Virus record (IMG/VR): IMGVR_UViG_3300036852_000461
Coordinates: 1 to 55,787 of that record
Reading direction: 5' to 3' (one strand)
Length of the DNA: 55,787 bases
From: a virus
Taxonomy: Duplodnaviria; Caudoviricetes
The notes under the pieces were generated by a model, which did no database searches, was not told the origin of the DNA, and saw nothing but the letters and a program-made list of their open reading frames with translations. Positions within the stretch are counted from its first letter, which is position 1; every line of letters starts with the position of its first letter. Positions 9,522 to 51,613 of this stretch are shown in pieces. Both the position numbers and the translations under genes were made by a program.

Positions 9522-9761
9522 ATGGCCACACCCGCCCGCGTCCAGCGCCGCAACAGCTCGGAGGTCGGCTTCCGCGGGCCCGATTGGGTTGCGGCCGTGC
9601 CGAATCTTCGGCTGTTGCACACGTTCACGAAAACGCTCGTCGACTTCGGGATCGTGGACGTCGCGGGCGTCGACATCGCGGATTTGCACGAGTTGGTCCA
9701 CGACCTGGCGCGAGCATTGGGTGCGCCGGATGGATGGCTGCACGAAGGGATGATTGAGTGA
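9522..9761 (+). CDS. Hypothetical protein
   Basis: Abuts the previous stop; coupled to the HNH. Confidence 0.6.
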   Translation: MATPARVQRRNSSEVGFRGPDWVAAVPNLRLLHTFTKTLVDFGIVDVAGVDIADLHELVHDLARALGAPDGWLHEGMIE

Positions 9762-10444
9762 TCGGGATCGTCAAGCGGCTAGAGCGCTTTCAAACGAGCT
9801 ACGCCCTTAACGACAACGGCTGCTGGGAATGGCAGCGAGGCAGGCGGCCCAATGGCTATGGCGTGCTGATGATCAATAGGAGTCCTCAATACGCGCATCG
9901 CGTCTCGTTCATGCTCCATGTCGGTCCAATCCCCGACGGGCTATGTGTCTTGCACCGTTGCGACAACCGATGCTGCGTCAACCCGGACCACCTGTTCCTC
10001 GGCACAAAGGGTGACAACAATCGCGACCGAGCAGCGAAGGGTCGGAGTGCTCCACGTCACGGCGAGTTCTCAGCGAGCCGGAAGCTGACGTGGGAGGACG
10101 TTCGGTTCATTCGCGCGAACTACCGGCGCGGTAGCCACACCTGGGGCCAGACCGCCCTCGGCCGTCGCTTCGGCGTGTGCCACGAGACCATCCGCAAGAT
10201 CATCAACGGCGATCATTGGATCAACGATCCCGCGCTCTCAGTTGCCGTCGGCCCTCCCACCGACACGCCCAGGCCGGGGTCGGCGGCAACCAAAAGCGTC
10301 GTGACGAGACTGGCCCCCTGCCCGGTATGCAGCATGCCAATCGCTGAGCACACCAACGACGCCGCGCGCGTGTGCATGGTGCGCATGGGGCTGGCTGGTG
10401 AACGGACCCCTCGCTTACCTACCGGGGGTAAGGCAGATGTCTAA
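9758..10444 (+). CDS. HNH homing endonuclease with HTH and C-terminal extension
   Basis: CWEW..GYG..AHRVS..VLHRCDNRCCVNPDHLFLGT..DN; KLT..DVR.IR HTH. Confidence 0.9.
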   Translation: MIGIVKRLERFQTSYALNDNGCWEWQRGRRPNGYGVLMINRSPQYAHRVSFMLHVGPIPDGLCVLHRCDNRCCVNPDHLFLGTKGDNNRDRAAKGRSAPRHGEFSASRKLTWEDVRFIRANYRRGSHTWGQTALGRRFGVCHETIRKIINGDHWINDPALSVAVGPPTDTPRPGSAATKSVVTRLAPCPVCSMPIAEHTNDAARVCMVRMGLAGERTPRLPTGGKADV

Positions 10445-10988
10445 CGCGCTCAAGGGCAAGGCGCCGACCAAGCGTGACTTCGAGCGGGCCTGGACCACGA
10501 CGCTCTCCGGCTGGTCTTGGTGGGGCGATTCATACATGGCGATCCGTGGGGTCCCGTTCTGGCCCGACCTTGAGGTCGAGGATCTCGAAGCGCGCCAGAA
10601 GAGATCCGATCGTCGCTTCTCGCCGACGAAGCTGCGAGCTGCGCTGCTGCGCGTCATCCGGCAGCACAACCGCGGGGAGACGTTGCCAATCCGAGTCTCG
10701 GATATCGCTACCTTCGAGTCCTTGGGCGGTCCGTACCCCGTTTGTGTCGCACGGTCGGCGCGAAACGGCCAGGCAATACGCGGCTCAGATGGTGGCCCAT
10801 GCGTCATCAATGCCGGGTTCGCTTCCCTGCTTGAGCGACGGATCAAGGACGGTCAGTGGTTCGTCTCCGCAGATCGGCAGATGTTCATCTACGACGTGGC
10901 CGGGCGCGCACGCGCGATCGTCATGGGCATCCGGACGGGCGGTAGGCCGGTCGTTCCTTCCCACTCCGCTACCGGGGACCAGGGGTGA
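10437..10988 (+). CDS. Hypothetical protein
   Basis: Overlapping start, coupled stop; ends AIVMGIR plus a repeat-encoded tail. Confidence 0.6.
   Translation: MSNALKGKAPTKRDFERAWTTTLSGWSWWGDSYMAIRGVPFWPDLEVEDLEARQKRSDRRFSPTKLRAALLRVIRQHNRGETLPIRVSDIATFESLGGPYPVCVARSARNGQAIRGSDGGPCVINAGFASLLERRIKDGQWFVSADRQMFIYDVAGRARAIVMGIRTGGRPVVPSHSATGDQG
10931..10969 (+). repeat. 39-bp direct repeat, copy 1
   Basis: CCGGACGGGCGGTAGGCCGGTCGTTCCTTCCCACTCCGC, identical to 12189-12227. Confidence 0.95.
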
Positions 10989-11536
10989 GCACGACGACCC
11001 TGTTCCCGGAGATCCCGCGCGTCGGCCGACGCTCGCAGTTCGTCGGCGGTGCCTCTGCTCGCCGCTCGCGCCAGCACGCCGCTGTCCGGATCGGCTCGGC
11101 GGAGAACGACACGCGCATCACGCCGGATGGCCTGTTCGCGTTGCTCGATGAGGAGTTCGGGTTCACCGTGGACGTGGCGGCTGCTCCCGACAACGCGAAG
11201 TGCGAGCGGTTCTACACCGAGGCCGACAACGGGCTGACGCAGGACTGGACGGGTGAGGTCGTCTGGATGAACCCGCCCTACTCGAACATCGAGCCGTGGA
11301 CGGCCAAGGCGGTCGCTGAGAGCCGCGCAGGGGCCGTTGTGGTGGGCCTGCTGCCCGTTCGCACCGATCTCCTGTGGTTCCACCGCGACGTGCTCGACGC
11401 GGGCGCTGAGGTCCGCTTCTGCCGGGGGCGGGTGAAGTTCGCGGGGATCGGTGCTCGAGCCAACGCGCCCTTCCCGTCGATGGTCGTCGTGTGGGGGCTG
11501 TATCCGTCCAAGACCCCGAGTCAGGCCGAGTCGTGA
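10985..11536 (+). CDS. Phage DNA N6-adenine methyltransferase (T1-Dam-like)
   Basis: TP..LF..LD.EF.FTVDVAA..DNAKC..FYT..NGL.QDW....WMNPPYS...LLP.RTD..WF. Confidence 0.9.
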   Translation: MSTTTLFPEIPRVGRRSQFVGGASARRSRQHAAVRIGSAENDTRITPDGLFALLDEEFGFTVDVAAAPDNAKCERFYTEADNGLTQDWTGEVVWMNPPYSNIEPWTAKAVAESRAGAVVVGLLPVRTDLLWFHRDVLDAGAEVRFCRGRVKFAGIGARANAPFPSMVVVWGLYPSKTPSQAES

Positions 11537-11775
11537 GTCGCCACGGGTTTCCGCGCTCCCAGAAGGGTCCGAAGACGGCGCACCCGATCGCGAAGGGCAT
11601 CGCCCGTCGCATGAAGGACGCGGCGCGTGCGGAAGCGGAGGCCAGAAAGGCCGAGCGCAGCAACCGGACAGTAGAGGAGCAGCTTGCCCGCCTCGATGCT
11701 GGCGGGTTCGCCGCATGTCGTGAGCGCAAGCGACTCGCGGAGTCGCAGGGATACAGCCCCAAGGAGGAGAGATGA
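11533..11775 (+). CDS. Basic hypothetical protein
   Basis: Coupled at both ends. Confidence 0.6.
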   Translation: MSRHGFPRSQKGPKTAHPIAKGIARRMKDAARAEAEARKAERSNRTVEEQLARLDAGGFAACRERKRLAESQGYSPKEER

Positions 11776-11927
11776 ACGAACAGACCGTGAAGTGCCCGAT
11801 CTGCGGGGAGCCGTACGTCTTCTATGCCTTCAAGGCTGGGGACCAATCGGCCTGCCCGAAGTGCCAGAGCAAAGCCCGGGGCGGCTCGCTCCGGGACCGC
11901 ATCGCAAGAGCAAGAGGAGGTAAGTGA
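11772..11927 (+). CDS. Small Zn-ribbon protein (51 aa, not in ORF track)
   Basis: SD AAGGAGG; MNEQTVKCPICGEPY...ACPKCQ. Confidence 0.65.
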   Translation: MNEQTVKCPICGEPYVFYAFKAGDQSACPKCQSKARGGSLRDRIARARGGK

Positions 11928-12148
11928 TGACCGTCACAGCAAAGTTCACCGTTCGCGCCGCGGAAACGAAGTACGAAGGCGGTCCCGTTCACGTTCGGCT
12001 GACGCCCGACTACGGAACAGCCGAAGCTCCGAAGAACGCCGAGTGGGCGAAGGCCACGCCGAGCGGTGAGATCACGATGGTGATCGACAACCCGGCTGCC
12101 GCGGAGCAGTTCACGCCGGGCCGCGAGTTCACGGTGACGTTCGAGTAG
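11927..12148 (+). CDS. Hypothetical phage protein
   Basis: AKF.V...EN..WAKATPSGEITMVIDNPAA..F..G.EF.V.F. Confidence 0.8.
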   Translation: MTVTAKFTVRAAETKYEGGPVHVRLTPDYGTAEAPKNAEWAKATPSGEITMVIDNPAAAEQFTPGREFTVTFE

Positions 12149-12188
12149 GCGTGGGCGACTTCTACGACCTCCTGTCGGACGATGTCCG

Positions 12189-12227
12189 CCGGACGGGCGG
12201 TAGGCCGGTCGTTCCTTCCCACTCCGC
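12189..12227 (+). repeat. 39-bp direct repeat, copy 2
   Basis: Identical to 10931-10969; lies in the 34-codon ORF 12151-12255. Confidence 0.95.
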
Positions 12228-12251
12228 GAGTCGACCCAACGGGGGCACGGT

Positions 12252-13163
12252 ATGAGGCCGCCGTTCACGTATTACGGCGGAAAGATCGGCATGGCCGATC
12301 GCATCATCGAGATCATGCCGGCGCACCGTGTCTACATCGAGCCCTTCCTTGGTTCCGGCGCGGTCTTCTTCGCGAAGCCTCCCGTCACACACGAGATTCT
12401 CAACGACATCGATGGGGCAGTCGTGGCGTTCTTTGCCGTGCTCCGCGAGCGGCCCGAGGACCTGGCTCGCGTCTGTCGCCTGACGCCCTACGCCCGCGAG
12501 GAGTACGCGGCCGCCGACTGTGGCGCACCGGGCCTCGATGATCTTGAGATCGCCCGTCGCTTCTGGGTTCGGGTCAATCAGTCATTCGCCAAGACAGCGG
12601 GCCCTCGGACGGGCTGGTCTATCACAACGGCCCGGACGCAGTCGGTCTCCGGCTCGGTAGCCGGCCGCTTAGATCGGTTCGCAGCGTGCGCCGAGAGGCT
12701 CTCGCAAGCCGCTATCGAGTGTTGTGACGGGGCGGACCTCGTAGCGCGTCTCGCGACCCCTGACAGCGTCGTGTACGTCGATCCGCCCTACCTCGGCACG
12801 ACTCGTTCAGGGATGACCAAGAGAGGCGACTACCGGCACGAGATGGGAAGCCGCGAGGATCACGAGCGGCTCGCGGAGGTCCTCCATCGGACCCCGGCGA
12901 CTGTGCTCCTGTCGGGCTATCCCTCGCCGCTCTACGAGGACCTCTACGCCGACTGGCCGAGGCTCGAGACGGCGGTTCTGGCGCATTCGTCGAACGCCGT
13001 CACGTCGGAGCGCGGCGACCGCATGGAGGTCCTCTGGATGAACCGAGAGCTCGACCGCGGACTGTTTGCGGTCTCTCATCCGCGGCGTGGTGGCTTCGGA
13101 GGTGAAAACGCTGGTCTCTTCCAGTCCGCTCGGCCAGCGGAGTCCAAGGAAGCTGGCGCCTGA
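12252..13163 (+). CDS. DNA adenine methyltransferase (D12 class, Dam-like)
   Basis: YYGGK, YIEPFLGSGAV, EILND, YVDPPY. Confidence 0.92.
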   Translation: MRPPFTYYGGKIGMADRIIEIMPAHRVYIEPFLGSGAVFFAKPPVTHEILNDIDGAVVAFFAVLRERPEDLARVCRLTPYAREEYAAADCGAPGLDDLEIARRFWVRVNQSFAKTAGPRTGWSITTARTQSVSGSVAGRLDRFAACAERLSQAAIECCDGADLVARLATPDSVVYVDPPYLGTTRSGMTKRGDYRHEMGSREDHERLAEVLHRTPATVLLSGYPSPLYEDLYADWPRLETAVLAHSSNAVTSERGDRMEVLWMNRELDRGLFAVSHPRRGGFGGENAGLFQSARPAESKEAGA

Positions 13164-13738
13164 TGTCCCTCGAGGCGCGTACGGTGGAGATGTCTGGGGT
13201 TACCGCTCGAACGCCGGCGGACTCGGCGCTGACGAATGACGCCGGCGGCAGCGAGGGCGGTAACCCCAGGCGCTCCCCTCCGCTCCGCGCCAGGCCCGTC
13301 ACGCTCGAGGACGCGAACGTGTTCATCCGGGCGCTGCACCGGCATCACAAGCCGGTCCCCGGAGCCAAGTTCGCGATCGGGGCGACAACCGGGGAAGAGC
13401 TTGTCGGGGTCGCTGTCGTCTCGCGCCCCGTCGCCCGTCTGACCGATCAGTACGCCGTTGCTGAAGTCACCCGCCTCTGCACGAACGGCCACAAGAACGC
13501 CTGCTCGTTCCTGTACGGCGCCTGCGCCCGCGCAGCGAAGGCGATGGGGTACGACGCCATCCAGACATTCACGCTGCCGGAGGAGGGCGGTGCGTCGCTT
13601 CGCGCCGCCGGCTTCGAGAAGGTGCCCAACGACTCAGGTGGGAAGTGGGGGCGCCCGTCGCGAGTCCGCCTCAACGACGGGCAGCAACCGCTCGCGATCA
13701 AAGACAAGTGGGTCCGGATACTGCGGGAGGACGCGTGA
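13163..13738 (+). CDS. XF1762-family protein (GNAT/Mom-like)
   Basis: AN.FI..LHRHHKP..G.KFAIG...GVAVV.RPVAR...EVTRLCT.G.KNACSFLYGA..RAAKAMGY...T.TL..E.GASLRA.G. Confidence 0.8.
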   Translation: MSLEARTVEMSGVTARTPADSALTNDAGGSEGGNPRRSPPLRARPVTLEDANVFIRALHRHHKPVPGAKFAIGATTGEELVGVAVVSRPVARLTDQYAVAEVTRLCTNGHKNACSFLYGACARAAKAMGYDAIQTFTLPEEGGASLRAAGFEKVPNDSGGKWGRPSRVRLNDGQQPLAIKDKWVRILREDA

Positions 13739-28784: not shown

Positions 28785-28813
28785 TTGACCGTTCCAGCCA
28801 GCGCTGTTAGCGT
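28785..28813 (+). promoter_or_regulatory. Promoter upstream of capsid
   Basis: TTGACC-17-TAGCGT with TG extension. Confidence 0.7.
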
Positions 28814-28836: not shown

Positions 28837-28895
28837 CCGCGGGTGCTGACCCGTGGAGGCGACGTGATCCACGTCGTTTCCTCAGGAGGTCAGCA
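28837..28895 (+). ncRNA. Structured leader motif, copy 1 (capsid)
   Basis: CCGCGGG-TGCTGA-CCCGTGG-AGGCGACG, second hairpin, then AGGAGGTCAGCA. Confidence 0.7.
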
Positions 28896-28898
28896 ACG

Positions 28899-30398
28899 AT
28901 GCGCATCCTCTCCAAGCTCTGGGAGCTGTGGCTGTGGCTCCGACTCCTCACCGGCGCGGCCGTCGCTCCCCCGGCTGGCGGTCTCGCCGCAAGCTTCCGT
29001 CCGATCGGCGGCGGTGAATCCGATGCCGCGATCAAGGAACGCCTCAAGGAACTGAAGGTCGCCGCCAAGACGGCCCTGGACGCAGCCACCGAGGCGGGAC
29101 TCAACGCATCGGCGAAAACGATCGAGGTCGAAGCTCCCGACGGTTCAAAGGTCGCGGCCATGGTCGTCGAGCCCGAGCACAAGGCGGCCTACGACACTGC
29201 GATGGGGCAGTTCAACGAGCTGCAGCCGGAGATCGAGAAGCTCGAGGCACTGCTGAAGGGCCACGAGTGGGGCAACCAGCCCGGCGCGCCGTCGGTCGCG
29301 CTGGACGCAGCCGCCATCGCGGAGATCATGAAGAACGCCGGCGGGCATTCGCGCGAACGCAAGACGCTCGGGCGGATGTTCGTCGAGTCCGAGGAGTACC
29401 AGGCGGCCAAGGCCGCCAACGTTCCGCACATGCAGAAGGCGTTCGAGTTCAAGGGGACGCTTCCCGATCCAATCCTGCGCAAGGACGTGTACTCGACGCT
29501 TCCCGGCGGAGATGCGCCGTGGCAGAGCTTCGGCTCGATCCAGACGGACCCGTTCGTCGAGTCGCCGCACCGCACCCAGCGCATCCGCGATCTGTTCGGC
29601 GTGCGCAATACCAGCTCGCCGCTCCTGCGGTACTTCCGGGTGCTCGGCTACCTGGCCGAGGGCGGGGCGACCAATGCCGCCTCGACGGTCGGCCAGCGCA
29701 ACGAGGCCAACGACGGCTTCCAGAGCAAGCCGCACACCAGCCTCAAGTTCGAGCCCAAGATCGCCAACGCGGCGCGCATCGCGCACTACGAGCTTGCGCA
29801 CCGCGACGCCCTGACCGACGAGCCGCAGCTGCGCGGCATCATCGACTCCGAGCTGCTGTACGGGCTGCAGATCGTCGAGGATGCGCAGATCCTGTACGGC
29901 ACGGGGACGGGCGACGACCTCGAGGGCATCCTCACCGTCGGCGGCGTGCAGGGCTTCGTGCTCGGCACCGACGGTCCGGCACCGTCGACCGACAACATCG
30001 CCGATGCCCTGCGGCGTTCGATGACGCTGGTGACGCTCGCGGAGTTCGAAGCCACGGGCGTCGTGATGCATCCGAGCGACCTCGAGAACCTCGAGCTGTT
30101 GCGCTCGGATGGTGATGAGCGGTTCTACCTGTTCGCCGCCACTATCCAGGCCGGAGGCGAGCCGCGCGTGTGGCGCGTGCCCGTCGTGCAGTCCCAGGCC
30201 ATCGTGGCCGGGACGGCCCTGGTCGGTGCGTTCGGGCTCGGGGCGCAACTGTACGACCTCGAGCAAGCGAACATCCGCATCTCCGACCAGCACGACAAGC
30301 TGTTCGTGGAAAACGGGATCGCCATCCTGGCTGAGGAAAGGCTGCTTGTAGCCACCAAGCGTCCGGAGGCCTTCGTCCTTTGCAGCAACCTCGCGTAG
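28899..30398 (+). CDS. Major capsid protein (HK97 fold) with N-terminal scaffold/delta domain
   Basis: KTLG..FVES, RIRDLF, KP...L.F, IAH, D.PQL..II...L.YGL...ED.QIL.G.G, F..N..AILAEER.....RPEAF. Confidence 0.95.
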   Translation: MRILSKLWELWLWLRLLTGAAVAPPAGGLAASFRPIGGGESDAAIKERLKELKVAAKTALDAATEAGLNASAKTIEVEAPDGSKVAAMVVEPEHKAAYDTAMGQFNELQPEIEKLEALLKGHEWGNQPGAPSVALDAAAIAEIMKNAGGHSRERKTLGRMFVESEEYQAAKAANVPHMQKAFEFKGTLPDPILRKDVYSTLPGGDAPWQSFGSIQTDPFVESPHRTQRIRDLFGVRNTSSPLLRYFRVLGYLAEGGATNAASTVGQRNEANDGFQSKPHTSLKFEPKIANAARIAHYELAHRDALTDEPQLRGIIDSELLYGLQIVEDAQILYGTGTGDDLEGILTVGGVQGFVLGTDGPAPSTDNIADALRRSMTLVTLAEFEATGVVMHPSDLENLELLRSDGDERFYLFAATIQAGGEPRVWRVPVVQSQAIVAGTALVGAFGLGAQLYDLEQANIRISDQHDKLFVENGIAILAEERLLVATKRPEAFVLCSNLA

Positions 30399-31265: not shown

Positions 31266-31568
31266 GTGAGTGAAGCGCACGAGCGGCCGCGGCCCCTGCT
31301 GTTCTCGGGCTGGAAGGATGACCCGCGCAAGCCGGGGCCACCGATGGTCACCTTGACCGAGGACGTCTGGGAGATGGTTCGTCACATCAACGCCCCACGA
31401 CAGCACAGACGCCTGGTTGGGAGAGCGGGCTCGAAGATCCCGATGAGCGAAGCCGTCCGCCTCGGTTTGGTCGAACCGCAGGCCGAGCAGGCCGCGATAG
31501 AGACACAGGACATCAAGAACATTGAAACCCAAGATGTTCGCCCTCCCCGAAGGGGGCGACGCCGATGA
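31266..31568 (+). CDS. Small capsid-associated hypothetical protein
   Basis: LV..AG..IP..EA.RLGLV motif, IETQD twice; TGcTATCCT just upstream of the GTG. Confidence 0.65.
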   Translation: MSEAHERPRPLLFSGWKDDPRKPGPPMVTLTEDVWEMVRHINAPRQHRRLVGRAGSKIPMSEAVRLGLVEPQAEQAAIETQDIKNIETQDVRPPRRGRRR

Positions 31569-32071
31569 GCAGGATACGTTCGGTGTCCGCCTATCCAGAT
31601 TTTATGCAGCGGGCAATCGCTCAGCTCGCTAGTAAATCGATCGTGGTCGGAGACTGTCGATTCTGGACCGGCGCACTGAATGAACACGGTTATGGGGTTA
31701 TGTCTGGGCCAGGGGGACGAGATCGAGCGCGCCCTCTCTTGGTTCATCGAGTTGCCTACGAGATTGCGCACGGCGGAATCGATGAGGAACAGATGGTCCT
31801 GCATTCGTGCGACCAGCGGCAGTGCTTTGAGGTATCACACCTGAGACAAGGGGTAGCGGCAGACAACACCCACGACATGGTCGTACGCGGCCGAGGCCGC
31901 GGCATGAATTCCGGCAAGACTCATTGCAAACGTGGACACCTGCTAGCGCTCGACAACGTTCACATCGATAAGAACGGTCGTCGCCATTGCCGCGAGTGCG
32001 GACGAATTCGTGATCACGTGCGTGTTCGTGAAAGCGGATGGGCGCGTCAGCGCGCTCGTCAGGGATCATGA
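31565..32071 (+). CDS. HNH endonuclease
   Basis: C.FWTG...GYG..VHRVAY..VLHSCD...C....HL; KTHCKRGH..CREC. Confidence 0.85.
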   Translation: MSRIRSVSAYPDFMQRAIAQLASKSIVVGDCRFWTGALNEHGYGVMSGPGGRDRARPLLVHRVAYEIAHGGIDEEQMVLHSCDQRQCFEVSHLRQGVAADNTHDMVVRGRGRGMNSGKTHCKRGHLLALDNVHIDKNGRRHCRECGRIRDHVRVRESGWARQRARQGS

Positions 32072-35346: not shown

Positions 35347-35375
35347 TTGACCGGGTCGGCATGCGCTCCTACGCT
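35347..35375 (+). promoter_or_regulatory. Promoter upstream of the 993-aa gene
   Basis: TTGACC-17-TACGCT. Confidence 0.72.
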
Positions 35376-35394: not shown

Positions 35395-35457
35395 CCCCGG
35401 GTGCTGACCGCGGGGAAGCGACGGGCGACGACCTGGTCGTCTGCGAAAGGTCAGCGC
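35395..35457 (+). ncRNA. Structured leader motif, copy 2
   Basis: CCCCGGG-TGCTGA-CCGCGGGG-AAGCGACG...GAAAGGTCAGCGC. Confidence 0.7.
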
Positions 35458-35492
35458 GTGTTGCCTTCCCCCGTCCGTCTGGTCGCTATCTG

Positions 35493-38474
35493 ATGCGCGC
35501 CAAGTTCCGTGACGCTGTCCTGGATCGCCGCGGGCATGGCATCGAGGCGACGATCGAGGTGCGCGAGCCCGGAACGACAACGCCCGTCGCGGCTGCGCTG
35601 TACGACGAGGCTGGCAACGTCCTCGCCAATCCGATCACCGCGAATACCGCCGGCGAGTTCGAGTTCTATATGGACGACGCCCAGCGGGTCGACCTCTTCG
35701 TCTCGAAGGACACCTTCACCGCAGAGACGCAACAGGTGGACGTTCTTGGCCCCGACCCCGCGCCCGTTCAGTCCGTCTTCGGCCGAACGGGCGACGTCGT
35801 TCCCCAACTGGCCGACTACAACGGCTTCTTCCTCACTCCGGCAGAAGGCGATGCCGCCTACGATCCCTTCGGTGCGGCTGCGTCAGCACTGTCGACCGCC
35901 GAGTCCTACATCGACACATCAGTTGCGAACTACGTCCCGCTCTCGCAGAAGGGCGCCGCGAGCGGAGTCGCAACACTCGACTCGGGCTCGAAGATCCCCA
36001 TCACGCAGCTTCCCGCCCTCGCCATCACCAGTACGTCGGTCGTCGCGTCGCAGGCCGCGATGCTTGCCCTGACGGCCCAGGAGGGTGACGTCGCGATCCG
36101 CAGCGACGAGAAGAAGACGTACATCCTCTCGACGAGCGACCCGACGCAGCTCGCGAACTGGCTGTGGTTGCAGACGCCCGACGACGCGGTGTCGAGCTTC
36201 AACGGCCGCGTCGGCGCCGTGATGCCTCTCCAAGCCGACTATGACGGGTTTTTCTTGACTCCGGCCGAGGGTGATGCTGCTTATCTCGCCAAGGGTGCGT
36301 TGACGGACGGTTCCGTGCTCTTCGCGGCTAGCGGTCAGGTGCAGCAGAATAACGCGCATCTGTTCTGGGACGACGCGAAGAATCGTCTTGGGATCGGGAC
36401 AGCCGCGCCCCTCGTACGACTGCACGTATCGGATGGAGCTTCCGTCGCATCGGCGCTTCTCACGACGGACGCCATCTCGCTCACCGACCAGTCCGGCAAT
36501 CTCACAACGGCATCGCTCATCTCCGTGACGGATGTGGCCGGGACGCGCGGCGTCGTCAAGGGCGTCCGGGCGCGAGGAACGCTCTCCGCCCCAACCGTCC
36601 CGAATACCGACGACGAGGTGTTCGCTTTCCTGGGCTCCATCTACGACGGAGCCACGACGCAAGGTACGGCTGGCGTGTTCTTCCGCGTGGACGGGGCCGT
36701 TTCGGCGGGCGTGGCTCCCCAACGTATCTCGTTCGTCACGAGCGCGACGACAGCCGCCGCGCGCACCGAGAAGGTCACGATCAAGTCCGACGGCAAGGTC
36801 GGCATCGGGATCACCGAACCGACCTCCATGCTGCACGTCGCCGACTCGTCGAGTTCGTCTCCTCGCGGGATCACCAGCGGGCAGTACAACACGGGCCCGG
36901 ACGGCGCGCGCCTGCACACGCGGAAGGCACGAGGGACCTATACGACACCTCTGAGCGTTGCGGCGGGAGACACACTCGGTCGCTGGGTCGCCGACGGATA
37001 CGACGGCACGAACTACCTCGATATGGGTGCCATCGCCTTCGAGTCAGAAGGGACGGTCGCCTCGACACGCATCCCGACGCGCCTCGTGTTCCTCACGGCT
37101 ACCAACGCGGCGCCGTCCGTTCTCACGGAAGCCATGCGGATCACTTCCGACCAGTGGGTTGGTATCGGGACGACGGCCCCGCTCCGGCGGTTGGCCGTTG
37201 CCGATGCGAGCGCGAACACGATGGTCGTCCTGCGTTCCGTGGCGAGCGGCGCGGCCACCAACGGGCTGACGATCGGCCGCATCTACTTCGGAACGAACAG
37301 CACCAGCGCTCCGGGAGCGGTACTGGAGACGGCGAGCATCCTCGGCGTCGCGACCGAAGCGTGGACCGTCGGTACGGCGCAAGGATCAGGCGTCCGCATC
37401 CAAGGAACCCAGAACGGCACCACATCGACCATCAGCGTCCTCGAGAGCAGTGGGCGTCAATACCTGTGGATCGACCCAGACGCGAATAGCACGAGTTCTG
37501 CGCAGGGAATCGCATTCGGAACCTCACGAGACACGCAGATATACCGATCGGGGGTCGGCATCGTTCTGCTCAACAACAGCCTCGGGATCGGCCAAAGTCG
37601 ACAGCGGCTCGCCGCCCTGAGCGTGCTGCCTCTCGCTACCCCCAACGGCGGTTCGACCGCGCTGGCTTCCGGTGGCGTCATCACCGCCCAGACCGTGACG
37701 TACGGGACCACGGCCCAGACGGGCGACGTCTCCGCCTTCCTCATCGAGCAGCAGACCTACGCTTCCACCCCCGCCTCAACCGTCATCCCCGATCTCTCCG
37801 GACTGCGCATCAAGGGTCCTGTCACTTCCGGCGCTAACGCTTCTGCCACGAGGACGCAGGCGTTGCTCATCGAGACGGGGGCGGATGCCAACAACGGCGT
37901 GGTGATCAGGCAGAACTCGGGCACGCAGTCCGCTCCATTGATCTTGTTCCAGAATTCCTCGGCCGGGACCATCGCGACCATCGGTGGAGACGGGAAGTTC
38001 ACCAGCAAAGATGGAACCGCAACGACTCCGGGCCACGCCTTCATCAGCGAGACCACCCTCGGCACCTACCGCATCTCCGCTGGCATCCTCGGATTCACCG
38101 CCAACGCCGAACTCGCCCGCATGTCCGCCTCTCTGTTTCAGCTCGCCGCAGGCGTCATGCTCACGCTCAATCAGGACACCTCGGCTGCCCAGACCATCGT
38201 GGCGGGCACAACGAACGGTCTCAAGATCGGAACGGCAACAAACCAGAAGCTCGGCTTCTTCAACGCAGCGCCTGTTATTCAGCCAGTGCGCGCCGCGACA
38301 CTGACCAACAACGTGACGGTCGGGGGAACCGACGACAGGATCGACGACATCACGGCTGCATCCGTGGACACGACGGCCGCCAAGCTGACCGACACGCGCA
38401 ATGCGATCTACCAGTTGGCGCGAGCTATCCGCGCTCATGATGTTGGACTTCGCGCACTTGGGCTGCTGAGCTGA
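35493..38474 (+). CDS. Fibre-like virion protein (993 aa)
   Basis: Ser/Thr/Gly-rich beta repeats, (L/V)GIG...P three times, duplicated V.S..GR.G.V...ADY.GFFLTPAEGDAAY, C-terminal LRALGLL. Confidence 0.75.
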   Translation: MRAKFRDAVLDRRGHGIEATIEVREPGTTTPVAAALYDEAGNVLANPITANTAGEFEFYMDDAQRVDLFVSKDTFTAETQQVDVLGPDPAPVQSVFGRTGDVVPQLADYNGFFLTPAEGDAAYDPFGAAASALSTAESYIDTSVANYVPLSQKGAASGVATLDSGSKIPITQLPALAITSTSVVASQAAMLALTAQEGDVAIRSDEKKTYILSTSDPTQLANWLWLQTPDDAVSSFNGRVGAVMPLQADYDGFFLTPAEGDAAYLAKGALTDGSVLFAASGQVQQNNAHLFWDDAKNRLGIGTAAPLVRLHVSDGASVASALLTTDAISLTDQSGNLTTASLISVTDVAGTRGVVKGVRARGTLSAPTVPNTDDEVFAFLGSIYDGATTQGTAGVFFRVDGAVSAGVAPQRISFVTSATTAAARTEKVTIKSDGKVGIGITEPTSMLHVADSSSSSPRGITSGQYNTGPDGARLHTRKARGTYTTPLSVAAGDTLGRWVADGYDGTNYLDMGAIAFESEGTVASTRIPTRLVFLTATNAAPSVLTEAMRITSDQWVGIGTTAPLRRLAVADASANTMVVLRSVASGAATNGLTIGRIYFGTNSTSAPGAVLETASILGVATEAWTVGTAQGSGVRIQGTQNGTTSTISVLESSGRQYLWIDPDANSTSSAQGIAFGTSRDTQIYRSGVGIVLLNNSLGIGQSRQRLAALSVLPLATPNGGSTALASGGVITAQTVTYGTTAQTGDVSAFLIEQQTYASTPASTVIPDLSGLRIKGPVTSGANASATRTQALLIETGADANNGVVIRQNSGTQSAPLILFQNSSAGTIATIGGDGKFTSKDGTATTPGHAFISETTLGTYRISAGILGFTANAELARMSASLFQLAAGVMLTLNQDTSAAQTIVAGTTNGLKIGTATNQKLGFFNAAPVIQPVRAATLTNNVTVGGTDDRIDDITAASVDTTAAKLTDTRNAIYQLARAIRAHDVGLRALGLLS

Positions 38475-41418: not shown

Positions 41419-41460
41419 GAGTGACAGAATCTTGTCACTCACACGGAAACGTCGTACGCT
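41419..41460 (+). promoter_or_regulatory. Tail promoter with palindrome over the -35
   Basis: TTGTCA(41432)-17-TACGCT(41455); GAGTGACA-N6-TGTCACTC at 41419-41440. Confidence 0.7.
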
Positions 41461-41514
41461 TCACCCGTCCGGGGCTGAGCAGAACCGGATGTGAGCACGA
41501 CCCCGAAGCATGGT

Positions 41515-41581
41515 CCCCGGGTGCTGACCCGGTGGAAGCGAAGGGCGCCAGTCCAACGCATCCGCTAGCAGGAGGTCAGCA
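41515..41581 (+). ncRNA. Structured leader motif, copy 3 (major tail)
   Basis: CCCCGGG-TGCTGA-CCCGGTGG-AAGCGAAG...AGGAGGTCAGCA. Confidence 0.7.
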
Positions 41582-41583
41582 AG

Positions 41584-42165
41584 GTGGTCAACGCACAAGA
41601 GACCGTCGTCTTCGACATCTGCGACGGCAAGGTCTACGAGATGTACGCCGATACGGCTGGAGCTTCGGCAGGCCCGTCATACGGAGAGGCCATCGATCTG
41701 CCTGGCATCGGGGCTCTCTCGGGCTTCGACCCGCAGATCGTCTCGGCCGAGCTGAAGGGCGATTGCCGTGTCATCGCCCGTCAGGGGCGCATCGACAGCG
41801 TGAACGCGTCGATCACCTACGGCAAGATTGCGATCCCCGTCCTCACGGCCCTGCACGACATGCAAGCGTTCTCGAGCGGGCTGATCGAGGGCGCGCGCAT
41901 CAAGGGTGGTGCGGAGATCAAGTACTTCAAGTTCACGGGCACCATCACCGGCACCGATGCTGGCGTGGACGACGTACAGGTCATCTTCTACAAGGCCCAG
42001 CTCACCTCCGAAACGCTGTTCGATCAGGCGAGCGATCAGTTCGGCCAGCCGAAGTTCGACATGAGCGCGATCGGCATCGATAGCGGCGCGGCCGAAGGCG
42101 TGGGGCCCTATCCCGGGCTCGAGGTCGCAACGCTCGCGGACATCCTCATCACCTCGGAGGCCTAG
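41584..42165 (+). CDS. Major tail (tube) protein
   Basis: Synteny; ELKGD, YFK..G, V.FYKA; strong SD. Confidence 0.8.
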   Translation: MVNAQETVVFDICDGKVYEMYADTAGASAGPSYGEAIDLPGIGALSGFDPQIVSAELKGDCRVIARQGRIDSVNASITYGKIAIPVLTALHDMQAFSSGLIEGARIKGGAEIKYFKFTGTITGTDAGVDDVQVIFYKAQLTSETLFDQASDQFGQPKFDMSAIGIDSGAAEGVGPYPGLEVATLADILITSEA

Positions 42166-48360: not shown

Positions 48361-48813
48361 TTATCGAAGACCGCGCGCGCGACGCCGTCGCTGAGCGAGT
48401 TTGGTCCTCTCGCGATGGCAGATCGAACAGACTCGGTGATTCGGGCGCGAGGGGAAGAATGTGTCATATGGATGCCCCTTCGGGCAATGCGTCTTGCGTG
48501 TTTCCTTGCTCCGTCGCTTCCGCGCGGAGTCGCGCATGTTGTCGCTCCGCGTTCCGAGGAACAGGTGCGCCGGGTTGCAGCACGCCCGGTTGTCGCATCG
48601 GTGACAGACGTGCAGGCCGTTTGGGATCGGACCATAGACCAATTCGTACGAGACGCGATGCGCGCCTACGGCTCCGCCGTATTTCCCCCCTCTCCCAATA
48701 GCTCCATAACCATTCGCGTACCTTGCGCCAGTCCACTCCCAGCATTGCGTCCAATGGCGCTTATCGACCTTGGGCCAGAACCGTTCCTCGATAGGTCGAG
48801 CGGGACAGGACAT
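48361..48813 (-). CDS. HNH endonuclease (antisense)
   Basis: [50 protein letters not shown]. Confidence 0.92.
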
Positions 48814-50146: not shown

Positions 50147-50175
50147 TTGAGTCCAGCACCCGTCTGACGTAGCCT
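50147..50175 (+). promoter_or_regulatory. Promoter upstream of leader motif copy 4
   Basis: TTGAGT-17-TAGCCT. Confidence 0.6.
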
Positions 50176-50192
50176 GACCTGGTAGCCACGGC

Positions 50193-50258
50193 CCGTGGGT
50201 GCTGACCTGCGGAGGCGACGAGGCCGTTTCGTCGTGTTCCGAAGGAGGACCCACCCGG
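50193..50258 (+). ncRNA. Structured leader motif, copy 4
   Basis: CCGTGGG-TGCTGA-CCTGCGG-AGGCGACG, second hairpin, then AAGGAGG; lacks GGTCAGC. Confidence 0.65.
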
Positions 50259-50282
50259 ATGCCCTGTGGATGCGTGGAACCA

Positions 50283-50924
50283 CTACGAACTCTGTTCTCG
50301 CAAACGCGCACGCCGCTCGCGCGTCTTCTCGCGAAGGCACGCAAGGCAGTATGGGATGCCTCGATAGGTTCGCCGTTGATGCTCCGAACGCAGATGGCCG
50401 CGCGGACAGTAGAGGTCGGGTTCCTTCGGTGGCTGAGCGGCTCGTCGGGCGGCGCGGTACTTCTCTGCGCGCATCCTCGAGCAGGTCTTGCAGAGTCGGT
50501 TTCCATTGGAGAGCCGCGTGGTGTTGGCCTCGTCGAACGGATGCCCGCGCAGGCAATGCGTGAGGCCGCGCCACTTCGCGGCTCCACCTTGTCGTCCAGC
50601 GAGCCAGTTCTCGCGCTGCGTTGTGATCCGGAGGTGGTCGAGTTCGTAGCACCGGCGATGCGGACAGAGCCCTTCGGCCACGACGCAGAGGCCGAGTGCC
50701 GCCGCTTCGTTGTGGCAGGTGTGGTCGAGCGTCATCCCATCTGGGATCGGCCCGCGCATCTTCGTCCAAACGTAGCGGTGGACGACCCAGACCCTTCCTT
50801 CGACCTTCACTCGTCCATATCCGAGTCCGTTCATGTAGCCCTTCCAGAGCAGACAGCCCTCGGGCGTCCGCTCGCCGTTGGCGAGGACTTCGTCGAGCGT
50901 CCAGGGCTTGTTGCGTCGAGCCAT
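50283..50924 (-). CDS. HNH endonuclease (antisense) with two Zn modules
   Basis: GCLLW.G..GYG..VHR..LDHTCHN..C..DHL...REN; THCLRGH and YCPRGH. TGtTATGCT 8 nt upstream of the ATG. Confidence 0.9.
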   Translation of the reverse strand: MARRNKPWTLDEVLANGERTPEGCLLWKGYMNGLGYGRVKVEGRVWVVHRYVWTKMRGPIPDGMTLDHTCHNEAAALGLCVVAEGLCPHRRCYELDHLRITTQRENWLAGRQGGAAKWRGLTHCLRGHPFDEANTTRLSNGNRLCKTCSRMRAEKYRAARRAAQPPKEPDLYCPRGHLRSEHQRRTYRGIPYCLACLREKTRERRARLREQSS

Positions 50925-50947
50925 CGGGAAGGAGCATAACACACCCC

Positions 50948-51613
50948 ATGCCATGCGGATGCGTCGAGGCTTCTATACTTGGGTGCCAGTGCGTGACCGA
51001 AGACTCGGACACGATCAAGTGGTCGGGCGCGGGAAGCTCAAGCTCCAAGTGGAAGGTCGATGCCATCATCGACCCTCTCGCGCGCAACCTGCTCTCGAAG
51101 AGTTCATCGGGCCTGCTGGTCGATCCGAACGATATCCCCGACTTCATGCGCATCCTCGGTGGCAACTACGGCGACGGCCCGTCGCCCGGATGGGTGCTCA
51201 GCGGCGATACATACGAGGACTGGGGTGGGACGGACTTCACGCGCAAGAGCTTCACCAAGGTCGGCAGCGACAGTGAGACCGATCTGCTGATCCTGTTCGC
51301 GGTCTCAGGCTTTCTCATCGACACCGGCCAGACCGGATCATGCGTGGTGGATGTCGGCGTGGAGGTCGGAGCGGGCAACGACGTCGGGACCCGGCCGTTC
51401 GGTCTGAGTTGGCCCACCGCAGTGAACGCCGACGGCTCGCAGATGTACGAGCACTACACGAACTTCGTGGCGGAGAGCGATGTCCCTGCCGGCGCGCTCA
51501 ACATCCAGCTCCGGGGAAAGATCCGCGAGAGCGACCACCAGTTCAAAGCCGACCTCAACTCCGGTTTCGCGTTCCTGGTCATCGAGGTTCCCGCATCGGT
51601 GACGTTCTCGTGA
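50948..51613 (+). CDS. Minor tail/structural protein
   Basis: SD GAAGGAG; CGC...C.C...DSDTI..SG.G.......NLL....GLLV. Confidence 0.7.
   Translation: MPCGCVEASILGCQCVTEDSDTIKWSGAGSSSSKWKVDAIIDPLARNLLSKSSSGLLVDPNDIPDFMRILGGNYGDGPSPGWVLSGDTYEDWGGTDFTRKSFTKVGSDSETDLLILFAVSGFLIDTGQTGSCVVDVGVEVGAGNDVGTRPFGLSWPTAVNADGSQMYEHYTNFVAESDVPAGALNIQLRGKIRESDHQFKADLNSGFAFLVIEVPASVTFS

Follow-up and report, generated by a model that had tools for sequence, protein, structure and literature searches.

A conserved hairpin in the capsid-gene leader of a clade of tailed phages, and a candidate ribosome-site-closing helix in a member with four late-gene cassettes

The stretch of DNA analysed here (hereafter, the window) is the IMG/VR virus record IMGVR_UViG_3300036852_000461, a Caudoviricetes genome of 55,787 bp with 64.6% GC and an estimated completeness of 76%, in which a short RNA hairpin is encoded in the leader of the major capsid protein gene and again in the leaders of three other late genes. 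Alignment of the four copies delineates a common layout, referred to below as a cassette: a promoter-like site, a block running from GGGTGCTGACC to GGARGCGAMG, a second hairpin (hairpin 2), and a Shine-Dalgarno (SD) sequence. GGGTGCTGACC has exactly four exact copies in the window, all on the plus strand (starting at 28841, 35399, 41519, and 50197), and the genes behind cassettes 1 to 4 are those for the capsid, a tail fibre, the major tail protein, and one further late gene. The reading developed here, the chances of which we put at about even, is that this late-gene leader is built in two layers, an old conserved hairpin and a lineage-specific helix that would close the ribosome site.

The cassettes and the genes that they serve comprise the following features. 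The gene calls come from a heuristic based on GC content at third codon positions (GC3), and several short and minus-strand calls are doubtful; cassette 4 as a whole spans 50147-50261.

28785-28813, plus strand: promoter-like site of cassette 1, TTGACC-N17-TAGCGT
28837-28856, plus strand: conserved leader hairpin, copy 1, CCGCGGGU-GCUG-ACCCGUGG, with 8 enclosing pairs
28855-28881, plus strand: hairpin 2 of cassette 1, the 5' arm of which is the second conserved block, GGAGGCGACG
28884-28898, plus strand: SD AGGAGG and spacer of cassette 1, including GGTCAGCA (28888-28895), complementary to the hairpin loop and 3' arm
28899-30398, plus strand: major capsid protein gene, HK97 fold (phrog_10, E=4e-50; PF05065)
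35347-35375, plus strand: promoter-like site of cassette 2, TTGACC-N17-TACGCT
35395-35415, plus strand: conserved leader hairpin, copy 2 (21.3 bits, E=5.9e-6, covariance model R1)
35449-35457, plus strand: GGTCAGCGC, 9 bp with one G-U to GUGCUGACC, preceded by an SD-like AAAGG
35458-35493, plus strand: predicted upstream open reading frame (uORF) of 11 codons, VLPSPVRLVAI-stop, with a GTG start; its TGA overlaps the ATG of the 993-aa gene
35493-38474, plus strand: gene for a 993-aa tail fibre or minor tail protein (phrog_26941, phrog_9942, and others)
41432-41460, plus strand: promoter-like site of cassette 3, TTGTCA-N17-TACGCT
41514-41536, plus strand: conserved leader hairpin, copy 3 (covariance model match)
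41570-41583, plus strand: SD AGGAGG and spacer of cassette 3, including GGTCAGCA (41574-41581), complementary to the hairpin loop and 3' arm
41584-42165, plus strand: major tail protein gene, GTG start (phrog_4971, E=9e-13; homolog in the closest complete relative, G004)
50147-50175, plus strand: promoter-like site of cassette 4, TTGAGT-N17-TAGCCT
50192-50212, plus strand: conserved leader hairpin, copy 4 (18.6 bits, model R1)
50249-50254, plus strand: ACCCAC in the spacer of cassette 4, pairing in a different register with GUGGGU (50195-50200) in the minimum-energy fold
50283-50954, minus strand: HNH endonuclease gene between cassette 4 and its gene (PF13392)
50948-51613, plus strand: 221-aa late gene, probably served by cassette 4 (no family match; starts MPCGCVE, like the relic start at 50259)

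The hairpin extends far beyond the window. A profile of capsid homologs retrieved 80 IMG/VR loci (42-47% capsid identity, 43-68% GC), all of which carry the motif GGTGCT[T/G/C]ACC upstream of the capsid gene, once in the form GGTACTGACC, at a distance of 48-84 nt from the capsid start. In a second scan the motif was present in 5 of 5 further loci at 38-46% capsid identity, and none of the 73 loci with an identity of 37% or below has it in the corresponding region, so that these 73 constitute a built-in negative control; the core of copy 1, GGUGCUGACC, is thus common to 85 IMG/VR loci, and it is shared with Gordonia phages. The best cultured capsid relative is Gordonia phage Chidiebere (41% identity), where a gap of 135 nt before the capsid gene holds TGGTGCTGACCA, and the hairpin was also found in Gordonia phages UBSmoodge, GMA6, ChisanaKitsune, and DalanDe; in GMA6 the hairpin stretch is 87% identical while its flanks diverge. 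In Streptomyces phage Gilgamesh, whose capsid is 35% identical to that of locus L333, the motif takes the variant form GGUGCUGGCC; Brevibacterium phage Cantare, with 48% identity to the L333 capsid, has no hairpin. A covariance model (R1) yielded 85 matches at E<=0.01 in 88 sources. When run on whole contigs, it identified a single strong copy per contig in 5 relatives and, in the window, no copies beyond the four already known (21.3, 18.6, 14.9, and 13.5 bits, all four being members of the training set), each of which combines the core 10-mer with an enclosing stem; copy 1 precedes an HK97-fold capsid gene.

Fold analysis places a GGU[GCUN]ACC apex within a variable outer stem, with 8 pairs and a 4-nt loop that reads GCU[U/G/C] or, in 2 loci, ACUG, and is closed by a U-A pair. 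In a 59-row alignment (A4), 84.5% of the cells pair, compared with 27-52% after a shift of the partner by 1-3 columns, and 5 of the 8 pairs show compensatory changes on both sides, as in CGUGGU/ACCACG of GMA6 versus CAUGGU/ACCAUG of DalanDe. Neither the covariation score nor the percentage paired was reached in any of 500 shuffles, and a model-made alignment (A5) behaves alike. With the core enforced, four or more enclosing pairs form in 58 of the 59 distinct sequences (mean z of -1.13 against shuffled 3' flanks), and the 10 apex bases show little or no variation across all 59 aligned sequences. We regard it as very likely that the hairpin is a genuine element conserved at the RNA level.

Its position relative to candidate promoters is similarly regular. 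The window contains 4 instances of TTG-N20-TASSST, every one of them 5' of a hairpin (0.59 occurrences expected; 0 of 100 shuffles reach 4), and in the relatives 61 of 62 distinct upstream regions have a TANNNT hexamer, the form taken by the actinobacterial -10 element, with its end 11-32 nt 5' of the core, which is weak evidence in AT-rich DNA. On this placement the capsid mRNA would begin at the hairpin or shortly before it. A strict promoter scan, with an E. coli consensus, calls none of the four sites in the window, and we infer a promoter function for them from their sequence and placement. A TAGTTSCAC-like motif was also observed 50-63 nt (once 84 nt) upstream of the core in 26 of the 62 distinct upstream regions (loci L311-L390), about 20 nt before a (G)TTAYnnT element; it may represent a late promoter, or a site for an activator, in the low-GC relatives.

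Database searches returned no prior record of the element. Rfam 15 gave no family match in the window, only one tRNA located elsewhere in 18 related loci, and only 4 chance-level matches in the leader region at E<=10. Literature searches, which did not cover supplementary material, found no published description of the hairpin, and the papers containing one of four of its 10-mers concerned, among the matches listed, primers and unrelated constructs. A survey of structured RNAs (PMC10690425) describes 5 candidates typically located upstream of the major capsid protein family PHA00201. A strict DNA pattern of the leader matched 1 other IMG/VR contig, in a coding context; it also matched 91 metagenome and 76 genome stretches, which were set aside, with recurring protein-coding contexts and no downstream GGTCAGC among the matches listed. 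A looser pattern gave at least 118 single matches in IMG/VR, judged to be chance. BLAST of the window leader against cultured phages returned chance matches only, and the capsid protein has no close relative in IMG/VR; its closest counterparts, P0002 (74% identity) and P0003 (61%), were found on short Logan contigs only. The capsid itself has an N-terminus of about 45 extra residues (MRILSKLWELWLWLRLL..., window 28899-29035) compared with most relatives, an extension also present in P0003; the region is GC3-rich, so the ATG at 28899 looks like the true start.

In the window, the hairpin faces a complement at the ribosome site. In cassette 1, TGCTGACC (28844-28851) is the reverse complement of GGTCAGCA, which overlaps the SD AGGAGG (28884-28889) and ends 3 nt before the ATG at 28899; in cassette 3 the same pair recurs (41522-41529 and 41574-41581), followed by the GTG at 41584; and in cassette 2, GTGCTGACC (35401-35409) matches GGTCAGCGC (35449-35457) over 9 bp with one G-U. 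These three matches, of 8, 8, and 9 bp, had been reported in the original prediction and are confirmed in full. It had taken the upstream partner to be a loop that pairs with the spacer; the pairing is recovered in silico, and only GCUG of TGCTGACC is loop, the closing U and the ACC belonging to the stem, so that the segment comprises the apex and the 3' arm. It had also overlooked that this upstream partner is, by sequence comparison, the deeply conserved element itself, and had counted three copies: all three do carry the complement, and the fourth, at 50197, which lacks GGTCAGC, was missed.

GGTCAGC is overrepresented in the window as a whole (24 occurrences against 12.2 expected; no shuffle of 100 reaches 24), with 4 of the 24 being hairpin cores on the other strand and 3 the ribosome-site copies. 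The longest complementary run exceeds that of shuffled targets at p=0.042, 0.016, and 0.018 for cassettes 1, 2, and 3, respectively, and the duplex energy is below that of dinucleotide shuffles at p=0.053, 0.033, and 0.056 for cassettes 1, 2, and 4. By our estimate, chance alone would very rarely (about 1e-6) place GGTCAGC within 60 nt 3' of as many as 3 of the 4 cores, although common descent of the three copies may lie behind this. The distance from arm to arm is 36, 39, and 44 nt in cassettes 1 to 3, which are not alignable between the hairpin block and the ribosome-site block; the latter thus appears to have been kept while its surroundings diverged.

Folding of the leaders places the complement in competition with the hairpin. 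In the minimum-energy folds of cassettes 1 and 3, GCUGACC pairs with GGUCAGC around hairpin 2, and in that of cassette 4 GUGGGU pairs with ACCCAC; the z-scores of the minimum-energy folds of cassettes 1 to 4 are -2.44, -0.53, -1.56, and -1.43. When the fold with the conserved hairpin enforced was compared with the unconstrained fold, in which the loop is paired 3' in all four cassettes, the closed, SD-occluding fold was favoured by 5.4, 1.5, 0.3, and 6.9 kcal/mol, respectively. The mean probability of being unpaired at positions -15 to -5 is 0.25, 0.31, 0.36, and 0.15 in cassettes 1 to 4, with a median of 0.47 across 69 leaders. Hence, the two-state switch that had been proposed is upheld insofar as the two folds exclude each other in silico, with the closed one favoured by 0.3-6.9 kcal/mol, and is not upheld as a property of the family; an alternative helix sequestering the SD or start is present in silico for cassettes 1 to 3 and not in most relatives. 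Terminator-like sites called by an E. coli-type rule between 28000 and 42000 number 8, none of which lies in a leader or follows a hairpin.

Across the relatives, the complement was assessed in 69 leaders by searching the sequence 3' of the 14-nt core for the best antiparallel run with that core, in comparison with shuffles (the starts of the cassette 4 and GMA6 leaders were set by hand here and in the folding). The strongest cases are L331 (GGUGCUUACCU/AGGUGAGCACU, 11 bp, p=0.002), L352 (10 bp, p=0.006), and L379 (UGGGUGCUU/GAGUACCCA, 9 bp, p=0.01). In the Gordonia phages, UGGUGCU of the 5' arm and loop pairs with AGCACCA or AGUACCA just before the AUG, AGUACC being kept in GMA6 though the rest of the leader is unalignable, and in Gilgamesh, by eye, GUGCUGG pairs with CCAGCAC directly 5' of the SD. 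The complement is not a family trait; it recurs in different registers in several lineages.

Two leaders have features of their own. In DalanDe (L392, 1150-1195), AGUACCA does not adjoin the annotated capsid start but is found about 25 nt 5' of it, so that either sequence has been inserted into the leader or the start may need to be re-annotated. In L406 (1312-1400), GAGCACG, CGUGCUC, and again GAGCACG directly before the SD GAGGAG make a three-way alternative pairing possible, with a partial match to the hairpin core.

Several results weigh against a functional switch, and most of them are equally the grounds for supposing that the hairpin functions by itself, either stabilising the 5' end or binding a protein, and that the complement is a by-product of cassettes copied together with a strong ribosome site, AGGAGG[T/A]CAGC. 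We regard this as a doubtful but real possibility. A complement at p<=0.05 was detected in 7 of the 69 leaders (about 3.5 expected) and at p<=0.01 in 3, which leaves 62 homologous leaders with no significant complementarity; by duplex energy against dinucleotide shuffles, 52 clusters have a mean z of -0.34 (t-test p=0.07), with z<-2 in only 6. The original prediction had named loss of the complementarity in most homologous leaders as evidence against itself, and on this point it largely fails. Within the GC-rich window the per-copy significance is marginal, and the duplex energy of cassette 3 is not significant (z=-0.7). The 14 ribosome-site bases are identical in cassettes 1 and 3, which share CAGGAGGTCAGCAA and, on this sequence identity, may be duplicates, so that the three matches would not be independent. 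In cassette 2 the complement ends directly before the GTG of the uORF (35458) and not at the ATG of the gene (35493). Cassette 4, with GGAGGACCCACCC as its spacer, works without the complement, and its ribosome site is split from the real gene by the HNH insertion. In the closest complete relative, G004 (68% GC), the capsid gene is preceded by GGAGGACAGACC and the major tail gene, whose leader has no hairpin, by GGAGGACACCC; these ribosome sites are similar and lack a perfect match, so that AGGAGG[T/A]C may simply be the inherited ribosome site of the lineage. The predicted probability of the hairpin is below 0.5 in 49 of the 69 leaders, including many with no ribosome-site complement, and the nearest-neighbour model thus appears to underrate this small hairpin and to be a weak arbiter between the folds. 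What a by-product does not account for is the retention of the ribosome-site block in cassettes 1 to 3 while its surroundings diverged, the appearance of complements in different registers in unrelated lineages, and the negative z of all 10 high-GC leaders, which are not independent of each other. We put a functional switch in the window phage at, or a shade under, an even chance.

Other accounts of the same pairing fare less well. RNase III might cut the extended helix of about 20 bp in which the GCUGACC/GGUCAGC pairing is stacked on hairpin 2, thereby freeing the ribosome site or setting mRNA stability, as at the inter-genic sites of T7 and in the lambda N leader. The sites do precede highly expressed late genes, and the minimum-energy folds of cassettes 1, 3, and 4 amount to about two helical turns of irregular duplex with internal loops; however, in the low-GC relatives the short hairpin stands by itself and gives way to C/A-rich sequence that lacks structure, so that processing cannot explain the conserved element and, improbable as we consider it, is a live alternative for the window phage only. 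Were GCTGACC and GGTCAGC instead inverted half-sites bound on double-stranded DNA by a dimeric late regulator, an inverted repeat 3' of a promoter-like site, as is seen in three cassettes, would be expected, but both the variable spacing of the arms (36 to 44 nt) and the covariation of the flanks of the upstream half as an RNA stem argue against a fixed operator of two half-sites. The second half-site is, moreover, missing in most relatives, and departures from perfect pairing are compatible with G-U pairs, an outcome favoured by a search that allowed them; we consider such an operator highly improbable. The pseudoknot and the translational riboswitch that had been put forward can be set aside as scarcely credible. 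An SD-adjacent complement is typical of riboswitch expression platforms, but 4 of the 8 bases involved in the pairing belong to the hairpin stem, so that the hairpin and the long-range helix are mutually exclusive and an H-type pseudoknot is unlikely, and conservation covers no more than one hairpin of 8 bp and a 4-nt loop, with no junction, pocket, or Rfam family match, such that the lack of an aptamer makes a ligand-sensing switch equally unlikely. Mimicry of the 16S 3' end or helix 18, of a tRNA anticodon arm or T-loop, and of an S15-type G-U/G-C motif was likewise considered and dropped, as each was suggested by resemblance only.

Of the two layers proposed for the leader, the older, which the comparisons bear out, is the hairpin itself; throughout a large phage clade it is found within the 5' leader of the capsid gene, a short way 3' of a promoter-like site. 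The invariance of its apex over hosts of 43-69% GC, together with the covarying stem and the presence of mostly one copy per genome, points to a sequence-specific partner, most likely a protein, that would read the apex. When all rough window open reading frames (ORFs) were compared by tblastn with 4 hairpin-bearing contigs and Chidiebere, only the capsid, portal, protease, and HNH endonucleases were widely shared, so that the partner would be either a head-module product or a host factor. That comparison yielded no candidate RNA-binding partner among the window ORFs, which also counts against the reading, and scans of 30 window proteins against Pfam and PHROGs, with many small ORFs falling outside them, gave no RNA-binding, sigma-like, or N-like match. 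As a second role, the conserved hairpin may serve to protect the 5' end of the mRNA.

In the window phage, the promoter-like site and hairpin form a cassette placed before four late transcription units, and the younger layer would be the spacer GGUCAGC(A/G) of three cassettes, complementary to the hairpin loop and 3' arm. In one state the hairpin would be formed and the ribosome site open; in the other the hairpin would be opened, and the spacer and part of the SD would be drawn into an extended irregular helix of about 20 bp stacked on hairpin 2. Being transcribed first, the hairpin should form first, its four loop bases offering a possible toehold to the later-made spacer, and binding or non-binding at the hairpin would set the share of the mRNA that slips into the closed, poorly translated fold. 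Such a gate would be governed by a protein or by kinetics and would involve neither a ligand riboswitch nor a pseudoknot. More tentatively, GGU[GCUN]ACC may represent a widespread class of cis-regulatory RNA, read by a head-module or host protein and wired to the ribosome site, by way of a toehold-like complement, in high-GC members such as the window phage, in which occupancy would set the translation of capsid and tail together.

The leaders and genes surrounding the cassettes present several further observations. The second block, GGARGCGAMG, follows the hairpin in all four cassettes (28855-28866, 35413-35424, 41534-41545, and 50210-50221); it resembles an SD (GGAGG) and supplies the 5' arm of hairpin 2, the 3' arm of which varies by copy. 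The 993-aa tail gene has no SD of its own, and the overlap between the uORF stop and its ATG reads TGATG (35458-35495), an arrangement that may indicate translational coupling. On either side of the HNH insertion between cassette 4 and its gene, about 30 nt around the start codon are duplicated (50244-50970), and the seven codons of MPCGCVE encode an identical protein sequence in both duplicates while differing at synonymous sites; this looks like a homing-endonuclease insertion with target duplication. 5' of the capsid gene lie genes for the terminase, a portal-MuF fusion, and an 861-aa protease-like protein. The early region carries recombination and DNA-methylase genes, with genes for Dam, a D12-class methyltransferase, and a Mom-like protein adjacent to each other (9758-13738), and includes an HNH gene (9758-10444) that matches the same regions of relatives as do the rough ORFs 31565-32071 (plus strand) and 48361-48813 (minus strand). 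No tRNAs were found in the window.

A tailed phage makes no product in greater abundance than its capsid protein, and little is known of its post-transcriptional control, especially in actinophages. An apex of 10 bases that is invariant across 43-69% GC and always precedes the genes of one capsid subclade is a strong signal of an undescribed specific interaction, and the clade, probably actinobacterial, includes culturable carriers in the Gordonia phages Chidiebere and GMA6 and the Streptomyces phage Gilgamesh. The window phage is the informative outlier, in which the cassette appears to have been copied to tail genes and the ribosome-site complement added, and may thus represent a natural experiment in which a binding hairpin was turned into a two-state translational gate. 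If the gate is controlled by a protein, virion stoichiometry could be coordinated through the translation of capsid and tail, and the element could serve as a compact, portable late-gene expression cassette.

Among known systems, the lambda cIII leader, which adopts two alternative mRNA folds, one of them exposing the ribosome site, offers the nearest parallel to the modelled gate: both are phage mRNA leaders in which two mutually exclusive folds expose or occlude the SD and start region (here, in silico) with no ligand. The lambda switch, however, resides in an early regulatory gene and spans the coding start, whereas here the hairpin is clade-wide and, in the window phage, precedes four late structural genes. 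The short hairpin with an invariant loop, its location close to the promoter, and its several copies per genome in the window phage are reminiscent of boxB in the lambda nut sites recognized by N; unlike boxB, with its GNRA-like pentaloop on a 5-bp stem, the present loop is GCUN closed by a U-A pair and the genes served are late structural ones, and, unlike in the nut system, the 30 window proteins scanned include no N-like protein and no terminator-like sites follow the hairpins. As in the MS2 coat/replicase operator and those of T4 RegA, gp32, and gp43, a leader hairpin would be the binding site of a protein and the product is an abundant phage protein, but those operators contain or abut the ribosome site, whereas the present hairpin lies 48-84 nt upstream and would make contact only through the lineage-specific complement.

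With the ompA leader and the SP82 stabiliser, the hairpin shares a location within about 10-25 nt of the putative transcription start of a highly expressed mRNA; such stabilisers require structure and not loop sequence, in contrast to the 10 near-invariant apex bases found here. The start-associated sequence (SAS) and extended SAS (ESAS) of Cluster K mycobacteriophages are likewise repeated motifs, accompanied by inverted repeats, next to translation starts of actinophages, but the SAS includes the SD and differs in sequence. The hairpin thus has the defining features of neither boxB, the translational operators, nor the lambda cIII leader, and we rate it as a class of leader hairpin that is undescribed, by the measure of the literature searches and Rfam, and that bears a lineage-specific add-on predicted to close the ribosome site.

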